Shown here piece by piece: positions 6,850 to 48,950 of a DNA stretch of 49,389 nucleotides. Every line of letters begins with the position of its first letter. Positions within the stretch are counted from its first letter, which is position 1. The notes beneath the pieces are model-generated. The model was not told the DNA's origin. It did not search any database and saw only the letters and a program-made list of their open reading frames with translations. The stretch comes from a virus (Duplodnaviria; Heunggongvirae; Uroviricota; Caudoviricetes), in the IMG/VR virus record IMGVR_UViG_2851966386_000003, positions 1 through 49,389 of that record; one strand, written 5' to 3'. The translations under genes and the position numbers were made by a program.

Positions 6850-7263
6850 CTATTTTTTTTGATTGTTTATGAGGTCGTAGACGTCGTTCTTAAGCAACTC
6901 GATATCGTGCAGGACACCTTTGGTGTGAAGGATAAGACGCAACTTTTCGGACTCAGGAAGTTGGTTAAAGAGCGAGAGTATCATTAGCTCCTTTTCGTCC
7001 AGGTCACGATTTGATGATAACGTCTGATCAGGCTTATCATCAGTTTCATCTGAGGGAAGAAAGAACCAGTGCTCTGGTTTTCCTGTTGCTGCAGCAAGTC
7101 GCTTTAACCTCTCACCACTCGCAACACTTTTCCCTTTAGCCCAATTTTGCACAGCAGTGTGCGAGAGCATGACCTTCTTGGCTAGATCGGATTTATTCCA
7201 GCCATTTTCAGTCATGACTTGTTGAATTCTTTTGGCAAAAACTGGGTAAGTGATCTCATTCAT
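6850..7263 (-). CDS. XRE-family HTH repressor (CI-like, no peptidase domain)
   Basis: 137-aa ORF with HTH (SDLAKKVMLSHTAVQNWAKGK); divergent from Cro-like gene. Confidence 0.7.
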   Translation of the reverse strand: MNEITYPVFAKRIQQVMTENGWNKSDLAKKVMLSHTAVQNWAKGKSVASGERLKRLAAATGKPEHWFFLPSDETDDKPDQTLSSNRDLDEKELMILSLFNQLPESEKLRLILHTKGVLHDIELLKNDVYDLINNQKK

Positions 7264-7374: not shown

Positions 7375-7605
7375 ATGAACAAAGAGACGCAACAAAAAAT
7401 CAGTAAGGCAGCATCTCGTGCCTGTATCGGAAAGCACTTTGGCATCAGCGGTCAGGCTGTTGGTAAGTGGATTTACGAGAATGGAGTGCCTCAAAAACGC
7501 ATCGTCCCACTATGCCGTTTTCTTAACTGGGAAGTAACGCCTCATGAAATTGATCCTGAGGCGTACCCAAACCCAACTGACGGCCTGCCGAAACGGGAAG
7601 GCTGA
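7375..7605 (+). CDS. Cro/YdaS-like HTH regulator
   Basis: 76-aa ORF with HTH (GISGQAVGKWIYENGVPQKR); divergent from repressor. Confidence 0.6.
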   Translation: MNKETQQKISKAASRACIGKHFGISGQAVGKWIYENGVPQKRIVPLCRFLNWEVTPHEIDPEAYPNPTDGLPKREG

Positions 7606-7607
7606 CT

Positions 7608-8144
7608 ATGCAAACACTTTCCTTTCAACAAAATACCGGAATCACCACCGGCGCACTGATAAAGCGAAATCAGCTGAGAGAGTCAGATCACGACGCTATT
7701 CGCTCTGCTGTTCGCGCCTGGGCAGCAGCTGAAGGGCAGGATGTTGTCTCGGCATACATCATCGATGAGTGGCGACAGCAGGGCGGCGAGGAGATCGCGT
7801 TTCCTGATGATATCAGCCGTGCCCGCCAGAAGCTTTTTCGCTACCTGGACAACCCTGCCGACTCTGAGCGCTATCGCGAGTACGTTCGCCTTCTTACCCC
7901 GGCAATCATGGCCGTTCTTCCACTGGAGTTCCGACATCGTCTTATGCCTCAGGACGATATTTTGTCGCGCCTGTCTTCGGCCATGAAGGAATGCGCAGAA
8001 GCAAAGCAAGCGGTGATGCTGAACGCGCCAGAGCACCAGAAACTGAAGGAGGTGAGCGAGGGAATAGCGTCGCTTTTCAGGCTAATGCCTGAGCAGACAG
8101 GAGCGCTGATGACGATCGTGAGCTCAATGCTCGGCGTGATGTAA
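7608..8144 (+). CDS. CII-like/YdaT-like regulatory protein (putative)
   Basis: 178-aa ORF tightly coupled downstream of cro-like gene; assignment by position and loose resemblance only. Confidence 0.4.
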   Translation: MQTLSFQQNTGITTGALIKRNQLRESDHDAIRSAVRAWAAAEGQDVVSAYIIDEWRQQGGEEIAFPDDISRARQKLFRYLDNPADSERYREYVRLLTPAIMAVLPLEFRHRLMPQDDILSRLSSAMKECAEAKQAVMLNAPEHQKLKEVSEGIASLFRLMPEQTGALMTIVSSMLGVM

Positions 8145-13696: not shown

Positions 13697-13834
13697 ATGT
13701 ATTTCTGCAGTGTGAAGTGCGCTAAAGACAAGCAGGTTGCGCGTTGTGGTAATGCGGTTCCTCCGCCTTTTGCTGAGGCGCTGGTGAGTGCTAATTTTCC
13801 GGAGATGTGCCTGAAAAAAGACATTGCAGCATGA
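13697..13834 (+). CDS. Small Cys-containing ORF (45 aa) between two terminators
   Basis: Manual translation MYFCSVKCAKDKQVARCGNAVPPPFAEALVSANFPEMCLKKDIAA; stop abuts terminator; no clear SD. Confidence 0.25.
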   Translation: MYFCSVKCAKDKQVARCGNAVPPPFAEALVSANFPEMCLKKDIAA

Positions 13835-13835
13835 T

Positions 13836-13862
13836 AAAACCCGCTTCGGCGGGTTTTTTATT
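13836..13862 (+). terminator. Rho-independent terminator
   Basis: aaacccgc ttcg gcgggttt followed by T-run. Confidence 0.65.
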
Positions 13863-13943
13863 ATGGAAAAACATCAATCTAAACATAAGCATGGTGTTGG
13901 CAAAAAGTGCTGCAGAGGGGTTGAACATTTCATGCAACCGGTA

Positions 13944-13963
13944 TACTGTTTATTTATACAGTA
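13944..13963. promoter_or_regulatory. LexA box (SOS operator) upstream of dinI homologue
   Basis: TACTGTTTATTTATACAGTA = CTGT-N8-ACAG palindrome, 20 bp upstream of dinI-like ATG. Confidence 0.65.
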
Positions 13964-13982
13964 TCTGTGTGAGGTGCTAACC

Positions 13983-14216
13983 ATGAAAGTTGAAGTCACA
14001 ATTGATAAACATAAAAAACTCCCTGATGGTGCCATACCTGCGCTTGAGCAAGAATTGTTGCGCCGCTTGTCCCAGTCTTATGATGACTGCAAATTAACCA
14101 TTCGATGCACAAGCAACGATGGCCTTAGCGTTTTGGGCGGCGCTGATGGCGATAAAAAGCGCGTTGAGCAAATTCTGCAAGAGACATGGGAAAGCGCAGA
14201 CGACTGGTTTTATTAG
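13983..14216 (+). CDS. dinI: DinI-family protein
   Basis: 77-aa product matches E. coli DinI along its length (MKVEVTIDK...LPDGAIPALEQELLRR...EQILQETWESADDWF); GAGGTG SD; real start is internal Met of ORF 13824..14216. Confidence 0.8.
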   Translation: MKVEVTIDKHKKLPDGAIPALEQELLRRLSQSYDDCKLTIRCTSNDGLSVLGGADGDKKRVEQILQETWESADDWFY

Positions 14217-14291
14217 TTTAATTGTGATGGTGGCGGCTCTTATCCCAGAGCATCGCATTCGCGTTTCCCTTGATGCTGCTACCCGTTTTTT

Positions 14292-14546
14292 ATGAGTGCG
14301 TCTGTATGTCGCTCAGGGGGTAATGTGACAGATGGTATTGACCCAAATCAGCAGGGGAATGTGTGGGCCACCATTACGGACGGATCCGGACATGTGTTGT
14401 GCTCATTCCGATTAGCTTTGAATGACCGAATCCTTTTATCGAATATTAATAGTGAAGTATCGGTTAGGAAAATTGCTAAAGATGAACACCTCTGGACAAG
14501 AAAATCATTAGTGGAGGTTATTAAGGAAATGAGCTCTAAAAATTGA
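14292..14546 (+). CDS. Hypothetical protein (weak call)
   Basis: 84-aa ORF without convincing SD. Confidence 0.2.
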   Translation: MSASVCRSGGNVTDGIDPNQQGNVWATITDGSGHVLCSFRLALNDRILLSNINSEVSVRKIAKDEHLWTRKSLVEVIKEMSSKN

Positions 14547-14629
14547 CTCATAACAGCTAGCTACATCATACTTGTAGTGCTGGTCTGAACAACCAGCCAC
14601 CTGACAGTAATGCGCCACCGGAGAACGTG

Positions 14630-15226
14630 ATGGCGCAGCTTCACTTAATAAAACAATCTCAAGGTATCCTGATCCCCGCGACGCCGGAGACCAGTGATTT
14701 TCTGCAATCAAAATGCAAGCTCGGATCCGTTCTGGAAGCCGATTATAAGCTTGTCCGCAATCCGGCGTTTCACCGCCGTTACTTTGCTTTACTCAATCTC
14801 GGCTTTGAATATTGGGAACCTACCGGCGGGGCGATTTCGTCTAACGAGCGCAGGCTTATCACAGGTTACGCCAAATACCTTGCTGCATATGGCGGGAGTG
14901 AATCGGCGTTGCTTGATGCCGCCGGGCAATATCTCGACCGGATAGCTGAGAAGCGATCCGGCTATATCAGTATTTGCAAATCCTTCGATGCTTACCGGGC
15001 GTGGGTCATCGTTGAAGCCGGCCACTATGACGCCATACAGCTACCGGACGGCACGCTGAAAAAACACCCTCGCAGCATTTCTTTTGCAAGCATGGACGAA
15101 TGCGAGTTCCAAGAACTGTACAAAGCATCGCTGGATGTTCTCTGGCGGTGGATCCTCTCTCGTTCATTCAACAGCCTGCAGGAAGCTGAGAACGCCGCCA
15201 ACCAGCTTTTAAGCTTCGCGGGGTGA
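14630..15226 (+). CDS. Nin-region phage protein of unknown function
   Basis: ORF 14627..15226; ATG 14630 after GGAGAA SD; nin-region position. Confidence 0.5.
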   Translation: MAQLHLIKQSQGILIPATPETSDFLQSKCKLGSVLEADYKLVRNPAFHRRYFALLNLGFEYWEPTGGAISSNERRLITGYAKYLAAYGGSESALLDAAGQYLDRIAEKRSGYISICKSFDAYRAWVIVEAGHYDAIQLPDGTLKKHPRSISFASMDECEFQELYKASLDVLWRWILSRSFNSLQEAENAANQLLSFAG

Positions 15227-47839: not shown

Positions 47840-48409
47840 GTGCTGATTGGCTATGCGAGGGTATCAACCGGGGATCAAAACCTCGACTTACAGAAAAATG
47901 CGCTGATCCGCGCAGAATGTGAGCTGGTTTTTGAGGATATGGCCAGCGGGAAAAATGCCCAGCGGCCAGGGTTAAAGCGCGCCTTACGCAGGCTTAAGCC
48001 CGGCGATGTGCTGGTGGTCTGGAAACTTGACCGACTGGGCCGAAGCGTGCGTGACCTGATTACACTCGTGTCGGAGCTGCAGGCGCGCGGGGTGAATTTC
48101 CGCAGCCTGACTGACAGCATCGACACCTCGACGCCTGCGGGACGTTTCTTCTTCCACGTCATGAGCGCCCTGGCGGAAATGGAAAGAGAGCTGATTGTCG
48201 AGCGTACACGAGCGGGTTTAGCCGCAGCGAGGGAGCAGGGGAGAGTCGGCGGCCGCCGCCGGGTAATGACTGAAGTAGTGGTGGAGCGGTGCCGCAGAAT
48301 GCTGGAGAACGGCGCTACCCGGCACCAGATCGCAGATGTGATAGGGGTGGGAGTGAAGACGATTTACAAATATTTGCCAGTACAATACAGCGATAAAAAA
48401 TCCCCTTGA
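47840..48409 (+). CDS. Serine DNA invertase (Gin/Hin/Pin/Cin family)
   Basis: Product aligns with Gin from memory (MLIGYARVSTGDQN...LVVWKLDRLGRS...FRSLTDSIDTSTPAGRFFFHVMSALAEMERELIVERT); C-terminal HTH. Confidence 0.85.
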   Translation: MLIGYARVSTGDQNLDLQKNALIRAECELVFEDMASGKNAQRPGLKRALRRLKPGDVLVVWKLDRLGRSVRDLITLVSELQARGVNFRSLTDSIDTSTPAGRFFFHVMSALAEMERELIVERTRAGLAAAREQGRVGGRRRVMTEVVVERCRRMLENGATRHQIADVIGVGVKTIYKYLPVQYSDKKSP

Positions 48410-48930: not shown

Positions 48931-48950
48931 TACTGTATATAAAAACAGTA
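48931..48950. promoter_or_regulatory. LexA box of umuD
   Basis: TACTGTATATAAAAACAGTA (CTGT-N8-ACAG), identical as I recall to the E. coli umuDC operator, 20 bp before umuD ATG. Confidence 0.8.

Follow-up and report, generated by a model that had tools for sequence, protein, structure and literature searches.

The LexA box and the dinI gene examined in this DNA (49,389 nucleotides, the whole of which is referred to here as the window) very likely stand at the start of a Gifsy-type operon for SOS-controlled induction, located in a lambdoid prophage of Klebsiella (Table 1). An earlier note on the same DNA had recognized the DinI gene and its box, both of which stand, but had read the unit as dinI alone and missed the GftA-like antirepressor gene downstream. 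By analogy with the Gifsy prophages of Salmonella, this small antirepressor is most likely the functionally decisive part of the LexA-controlled unit. The binding of LexA, the co-transcription of the genes and the interaction between antirepressor and repressor are predicted from homology to Gifsy (40-77% identity). The mechanism itself was already established in Salmonella in 2011, and its extension to Klebsiella was anticipated at that time; in the literature searched we found no later paper on the Klebsiella module. The survey of allele pairing and the intron insertion described below are small additions to this known system.

Table 1. Features of the putative induction operon and of the immunity region, with positions in the window.
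Feature	Position	Strand	Basis
Intrinsic terminator AAAACCCGCTTCGGCGGGTTTT followed by a T run, predicted to insulate the operon from upstream transcription	13836-13865	+	Terminator scan; conservation
Candidate -35 TTGAAC	13921-13926	+	Read from sequence; conservation; predicted function
Candidate -10 TATACT, 15-nt spacer, overlapping the LexA box	13942-13947	+	Read from sequence; predicted function
LexA operator TACTGTTTATTTATACAGTA	13944-13963	.	Consensus match; matrix score; conserved register
Alternative -10 TACTGT, 17-nt spacer	13944-13949	+	Read from sequence
dinI homologue, 77 aa, first gene of the operon	13983-14216	+	Pfam; PHROG; PDB; Gifsy-2 homology
GftA-like antirepressor, 73 aa, probable GTG start	14325-14546	+	tblastn; BLASTP; PHROG; leader conservation
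irsA homologue (DUF1367), third gene of the unit	14630-15226	+	Pfam DUF1367 (295 bits); start ATG 14630 from alignment
Prophage repressor, 137 aa, HTH only, putative antirepressor target	6850-7263	-	Pfam HTH_3 only; Gifsy-2 homology
Cro/YdaS-like gene, divergent from the repressor	7375-7605	+	ORF list; collinear with Gifsy-2
YdaT/CII-like gene, following the Cro/YdaS-like gene	7608-8144		Pfam YdaT_toxin

The palindrome that the earlier note placed 20 bp upstream of dinI is real, with its CTGT-N8-ACAG core at positions 13946-13961 within TACTGTTTATTTATACAGTA, but the gap between the box and the dinI ATG (13983) is 19 nt and not 20. A GAGG Shine-Dalgarno sequence (13971-13974) lies in this gap. 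Compared to the consensus 20-mer TACTGTATATATATACAGTA, the operator is identical at 18 of 20 positions and both mismatches fall in the spacer. Two sites within three mismatches of the LexA consensus were present in the 49 kb and none in 100 shuffles. Using a heterology-index matrix derived from 30 E. coli operators, which gives approximate values, we estimated an index of 1.4-1.9 for the dinI box. This score beats 27 of the 30 training sites, the next-best index inside the prophage being 11.8 and the best among 30 shuffles 7.2, and the same scan found no other credible LexA site inside the prophage. The match of the dinI box is far beyond chance, and the matrix scoring upholds the earlier identification of the palindrome as a LexA box.

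The operator also overlaps the -10 element of a candidate promoter, which a consensus promoter scan missed because of its 15-nt spacer. A predicted high-affinity LexA operator in such a position assigns dinI, by its sequence, to the SOS regulon. Just 5' of the terminator that precedes this promoter, the similarity of a 45-aa ORF (13697-13834) to phage DNA methyltransferases is confined to their C-terminus (phrog_23072, positions 360-399 of the 400 in the profile). This gene remnant marks a mosaic joint beside the dinI module.

The product of the first gene matches DinI along its length, as the earlier note had stated. It covers all 63 positions of the Pfam DinI profile (PF06183; 91.5 bits against a cutoff of 24.2), matches PHROG 189, annotated as 'RecA filament binding protein DinI' (E 2.9e-30), and aligns with the solved E. 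coli DinI (1GHH/7YWA; E 1.9e-18), residues 1-76 of the phage protein falling on residues 1-78. The protein is 64% identical to the DinI of Gifsy-2. It belongs to the same family and length class as the chromosomal DinI of E. coli, with which it aligns end to end, and both genes carry the signature of LexA control. Further, the C-terminal ILQETWESADDWF is identical in the two proteins, and the acidic C-terminal helix is the RecA contact. The phage protein differs from the 81-aa E. coli DinI in having 77 aa, a 2-residue deletion and no VSE tail, and its gene is phage-borne and heads an operon with an antirepressor. The operator of E. coli dinI, ACCTGTATAAATAACCAGTA, is further from the consensus. 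Klebsiella phage records already label the phage gene as 'DNA damage inducible protein I'. Phage DinI is presumably co-expressed with the antirepressor and would bind RecA filaments; by analogy with Gifsy, it would be an accessory protein not required for induction.

We identified the antirepressor by a tblastn search with the ORF located 3' of dinI against Gifsy-1 and Gifsy-2 (E 1e-12). The match falls exactly on STM1020.1n, which occupies the position of gftA in Gifsy-2 between dinI and the irsA homologue, and BLASTP aligned the two proteins over all 73 residues with 40% identity (E 2e-19). The ORF finder had placed the start of the gene at an in-frame ATG (14292) that would extend the protein to 84 aa. 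The start is, however, probably the GTG at 14325, which gives a protein of 73 aa like GftA, because the leader GCGTCyGTrTGTCGCTCAGGGGG-TAnyGTG is kept, GTG included, when the DNA of the window is aligned with Gifsy-2 and two Klebsiella phages. An AGGGGG Shine-Dalgarno sequence (14315-14320) precedes this codon, and the alignment with phrog_4847 begins at residue 12 of the 84-aa ORF, which is the residue of the GTG start. The antirepressor family is small or poorly called, with 8 clusters retrieved by a word-indexed search and 15 by an exhaustive HMM search. In a PDB sequence search, the only matches of the protein were spurious ones, to designed alphaRep repeat proteins, and AlphaFold2, limited by the small family to an alignment of 5 sequences, produced an unusable model (pLDDT 48.7).

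Terminator and promoter scans detected no terminator-like or promoter-like site in the 108-nt spacer between dinI and the antirepressor gene. In the predicted RNA fold of this region, UUUCCCUUGA (14264-14273) pairs with UCAGGGGG (14313-14327), which contains the Shine-Dalgarno sequence and GUG of the antirepressor. Such a pairing could limit leaky translation of the antirepressor. Gifsy-2 retains both pairing segments. However, phage ST974-OXA48phi18.2 lacks 11 nt at this place, and the fold of the spacer was no better than that of shuffled sequences (z = -0.56). Third in the unit comes a gene whose product shares 77% identity with STM1020, the irsA homologue of Gifsy-2. A promoter-like sequence, TTGACT-18-CATACT (14543-14572), overlaps the stop codon of the antirepressor gene and has a counterpart in Gifsy-2 (TTGACT-18-CATAAT). 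It could be an internal irsA promoter or could arise from the conserved ...SKN/SNN stop context. As the site could drive irsA separately, the third gene is only a probable part of the LexA-controlled transcript.

The repressor that the antirepressor is predicted to target is encoded in the immunity region near 7 kb. The Pfam search found only an HTH domain in this 137-aa protein and no Peptidase_S24 self-cleavage domain; the umuD gene product of the window scored 102.8 bits on Peptidase_S24 in the same search. Over its full length, the repressor shares 62% identity with STM1012, the repressor of Gifsy-2, which is not cleaved during induction (PMC3121763). Because the protein has no S24 domain, DinI cannot tune the cleavage of the phage's own repressor, and this proposal of the earlier note fails. 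The immunity region is marked by the Cro/YdaS-like and YdaT/CII-like genes, and we found no operator repeats in the intergenic region between the repressor and cro. The rest of the genome has a lambdoid layout, with an integrase gene (1-1188), RecT and exonuclease VIII genes on the minus strand, O/P replication genes after the immunity region, a nin-like region with YbcO and Q, and tail genes up to ~47.7 kb. Two plus-strand copies of the STnc100 sRNA (Rfam RF02076; 17518-17721 and 20217-20405, with 71.9 and 81.5 bits, respectively) flank the lysis region downstream of Q. The DNA of the window is 90-93% identical, in mosaic blocks, to phages of Klebsiella pneumoniae, and the locus had no megablast match in 5,426 complete E. 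coli genomes. At the DNA level, the element is Klebsiella-specific.

At the far end of the window lies a second near-consensus LexA operator, TACTGTATATAAAAACAGTA (48931-48950). It precedes a umuD-like gene (Peptidase_S24; ATG 48970) whose stop codon is the end of the window (49389), and a resolvase/Hin-type invertase gene (47840-48409) lies just upstream. The record of Klebsiella phage ST846-OXA48phi9.2 contains a similar 'error-prone repair protein' beside a Hin recombinase. Because these two genes also occur together inside that phage, the umuD-like gene may be prophage cargo.

The Gifsy prophages provide the experimental reference for this arrangement. Their short repressors stay uncleaved during induction (Lemire, Figueroa-Bossi & Bossi, PLoS Genet 2011; PMC3121763). 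The Gifsy induction operon consists of a Rho-independent terminator, a LexA box, a dinI homologue, a small antirepressor gene with a non-canonical start (gfoA, gftA and gfhA in Gifsy-1, -2 and -3, respectively) and an irsA homologue (PMC3121763). When the LexA-box region of Gifsy-2 was replaced with PBAD, induction became arabinose-dependent, and gftA was sufficient for induction by itself (PMC3121763). Non-polar deletions of dinI in Gifsy-1 and Gifsy-3 left the levels and rates of induction without significant change (PMC3121763 Discussion), and non-polar deletions of irsA were likewise without significant effect on induction (PMC3121763). The same study described crosstalk, with heteroimmune repressors responding to one antirepressor, and noted the dinI-irsA region and gfoR/gtgR-type repressors in Klebsiella (PMC3121763). 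The dinI genes of Gifsy-1, -2 and -3 each have one SOS box located 19 bp from the ATG, with heterology indices of 4.55, 3.92 and 5.26, and are induced 23-, 14- and 4.6-fold, respectively, by nalidixic acid (PMC8072944 Table 1). The central observation of the earlier note, a prophage dinI directly behind a LexA box, holds for the window, where the operator is of predicted high affinity, and the orthologous Gifsy dinI genes are SOS-induced (PMC3121763; PMC8072944 Table 1).

Using NC_010393 as the Gifsy-2 reference, we compared the window piece by piece and found the immunity and recombination region to be collinear. The four-way DNA alignment of the window, Gifsy-2 and the two Klebsiella phages keeps the terminator hairpin, a GCAAAAAGTGC block and a -35 TTGAAY (TTGAAT in Gifsy-2). 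Also conserved is GGTATACTGT, which corresponds to the TATACT -10 that overlaps the operator and is identical in Gifsy-2 and the window. The likeness to Gifsy extends through the terminator, the promoter and LexA box 19 bp from the ATG, dinI, the GUG-started antirepressor and the irsA homologue to a short, HTH-only repressor ~7 kb upstream and a collinear early region. The window differs from Gifsy in its Klebsiella host and in proteins that are only 40-77% identical. Further, its operator is nearer to the consensus than that of Gifsy-2, and the downstream nin region has YbcO where Gifsy-2 has NinG. By every sequence-testable criterion, the unit belongs to the Gifsy-type LexA/antirepressor induction systems.

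The arrangement is conserved among related prophages. We surveyed 80 IMG/VR loci with a DinI 96-100% identical to that of the window, which together with the window and two Klebsiella phage records made a set of 83. The LexA box was located 19 nt before the ATG in 77 of the 83 loci and varied only at spacer positions or at the last base. We considered loss of the box in the 6 exceptional loci and rejected it: the insert that separates box and gene is a group II intron. In locus L014, the intron (8072-~9981) starts with GTGCGCC, scores 186.6 bits against Rfam RF02005 and carries a 495-aa RVT_1 ORF; the same intron junction precedes dinI in L012, L027, L036, L065 and L079. The intron is in sense orientation, directly after the ...TATACAGT of the LexA box, at a point equivalent to that between positions 13962 and 13963 of the window. 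Its removal from L014 in silico restored the window's leader exactly, and the box is intact upstream of the intron in this locus, the only one of the six with upstream sequence. The box is in register in every surveyed locus that could be scored. Promoter and terminator were surveyed in the 64 loci with enough upstream sequence. The -35 was TTGAAC in 58 of them, TTGACC in 5 and GTGAAC in 1; the -10 TATACT was present in 63/64 and so was the terminator in 63/64. One variant class diverged in its spacer sequence while keeping the terminator, the -35, the -10 and their spacing.

The slot between dinI and irsA is occupied in these prophages by three divergent small-protein alleles of 73 aa (as in the window), 82 aa and ~63 aa. 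The 82-aa allele is weakly homologous to that of the window and the ~63-aa allele has no significant similarity to the others. When the short HTH repressors were sorted by their C-terminal segment into types A, B and C, the 73-aa allele was found with type A in 10/10 loci and the 82-aa allele with type B in 39/39. The ~63-aa allele accompanied type C in 8/16 loci, the other 8 having no detected type A, B or C C-terminus, and there were no cross-pairings between allele and repressor type. The nominal Fisher p for the pairing (1.2e-10) overstates the support, because loci with DinI proteins that are 96-100% identical are not independent. The third allele has the sequence M[D/E]LDIAEVVDII..., and its partner repressor is short, with no Pfam hit; the pairing was noted at L007 2629-3021 on the minus strand and in 8 other third-allele loci.

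Within type A, four repressor variants (48-100% identical to that of the window) share a near-identical antirepressor, and the association of one antirepressor allele with several repressor variants is again Gifsy-like. Unlike Gifsy, the Klebsiella relatives have antirepressors of at least three alleles, and each allele goes with a repressor C-terminal type of its own. In type B, an identical C-terminus follows two different HTH domains, which hints that the antirepressor recognizes the C-terminal part of the repressor. We dropped a firm claim to that effect, as the two halves of type A repressors show about the same conservation and the support comes solely from type B. Among phage records, the closest relative of the window's antirepressor (54% identity) is in Klebsiella phage ST16-OXA48phi5.1 (L004 1780-2760). 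In this phage, the segment from the terminator to dinI is replaced by an AT-rich insert of ~650 bp, there is no dinI, and no LexA box was found within 5 kb of the antirepressor gene. LexA control of the antirepressor family is, therefore, not universal.

The alternative that fares best treats dinI as a self-contained, LexA-controlled accessory gene, with a box that serves mainly DinI and a product that tunes the RecA co-protease toward repressor cleavage or toward UmuD and mutagenesis. We regard it as unlikely. It draws on an intact DinI whose RecA-contacting C-terminal motif is identical to that of E. coli DinI, on the upstream terminator and predicted promoter that dinI has of its own, and on the LexA-boxed umuD in the same window, which is a conceivable local target. 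DinI is also linked to LexA-controlled antirepressors in unrelated phages, as in the Tum fusion of 186 (PMC3121763). Yet a prophage repressor with no cleavage domain leaves DinI without a cleavage reaction to tune, dinI and the antirepressor gene have no terminator between them, and the non-polar dinI deletions left the induction of Gifsy-1 and Gifsy-3 unchanged (PMC3121763). DinI may still modulate RecA filaments, LexA or UmuD; the Gifsy deletions do not support a role in induction.

Still less probable, and in our view a poor fit, is a scheme in which LexA controls dinI only and the small ORF is read through from the early right operon, either not being an antirepressor or having no link to the SOS response, with some other trigger for induction. 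A relative of the small ORF does exist with no LexA box in ST16-OXA48phi5.1, and the fold of the protein could not be modeled with confidence. The ORF is nonetheless homologous to the experimentally defined GftA and occupies the same slot, its alleles co-vary with the repressor type without a single mismatch, and the prophage has no other credible LexA site. Further, swapping the promoter upstream of dinI in Gifsy-2 placed induction under the control of arabinose (PMC3121763). The notion that the palindrome is a chance match with no regulatory role is effectively refuted: chance alone would place 0.46 copies of the CTGT-N8-ACAG core in a window, and 6/100 shuffles had at least two, but the 20-mer is within two mismatches of a consensus that no shuffle approached within three, its heterology index is far below that of any shuffle, and its register is the same in Gifsy-2 and 77/83 loci.

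The LexA-controlled antirepressor operon that we favor can also be distinguished from other known systems. Like Tum of phage 186, the split Tum of PSP3 and Fels-2 and AntC of N15, it has a LexA-controlled antirepressor directed against a non-cleavable repressor. The Tum antirepressor is joined physically to a sequence resembling DinI (PMC3121763 Discussion). Tum of 186 is, however, a single 146-aa fusion with the antirepressor part first, whereas the window has two ORFs located 108 nt apart, with dinI first. No sequence relationship was detected between the window's antirepressor and the Tum or AntC antirepressors, and the unit is not a 186 Tum-type fusion. The prophage shares with lambda and P22 a lambdoid genome layout and an SOS trigger. 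In contrast to their CI proteins, its repressor lacks the S24 domain and the Ala-Gly/Ser-Lys self-cleavage machinery, and the sensor of the SOS signal would be LexA, acting at a distant operon, in place of the repressor. Because the search for Peptidase_S24 in the repressor was negative, its sequence excludes a lambda CI-type system.

In the mechanism proposed by homology to Gifsy, LexA bound to the operator over the -10 would silence the operon in the lysogen. DNA damage would activate RecA and lead to the self-cleavage of LexA, allowing the transcription of dinI, the antirepressor gene and probably irsA. The antirepressor would then bind the short, non-cleavable 137-aa repressor and strip it from its operators, and the lytic program would start once these are free. 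A more tentative suggestion, which we consider doubtful, is that DinI is a functional partner of the antirepressor: through a stabilizing effect on RecA filaments, DinI could extend the period of LexA cleavage or hold back UmuD processing and, in this way, sharpen or lock the commitment to lysis. Such a partnership would account for the repeated association of DinI-like sequences with LexA-controlled antirepressors in unrelated phages, which include 186 with its Tum fusion, PSP3 and Fels-2 with split genes, Gifsy and these Klebsiella prophages. It also fits a prophage region that has its own LexA-boxed umuD.

The general picture of the SOS response and of prophage induction is unchanged by these results, which bear on the annotation of many related prophages in Klebsiella pneumoniae. 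Their induction gene would be a GUG-started ORF of 73-82 aa that is unannotated or labeled 'hypothetical', and their repressor is likewise not CI-like. Recognition of the module implies, by homology, that these prophages read DNA damage via the host LexA and an antirepressor. On this view, quinolones and other SOS-inducing drugs should induce the prophages, and a lexA(Ind-) background should prevent induction. Co-induction of co-resident prophages is also predicted, because one antirepressor allele pairs with several repressor variants (48-100% identical). More doubtfully, the three allele-repressor pairings could constitute a predictable cross-induction code among co-resident Klebsiella prophages.
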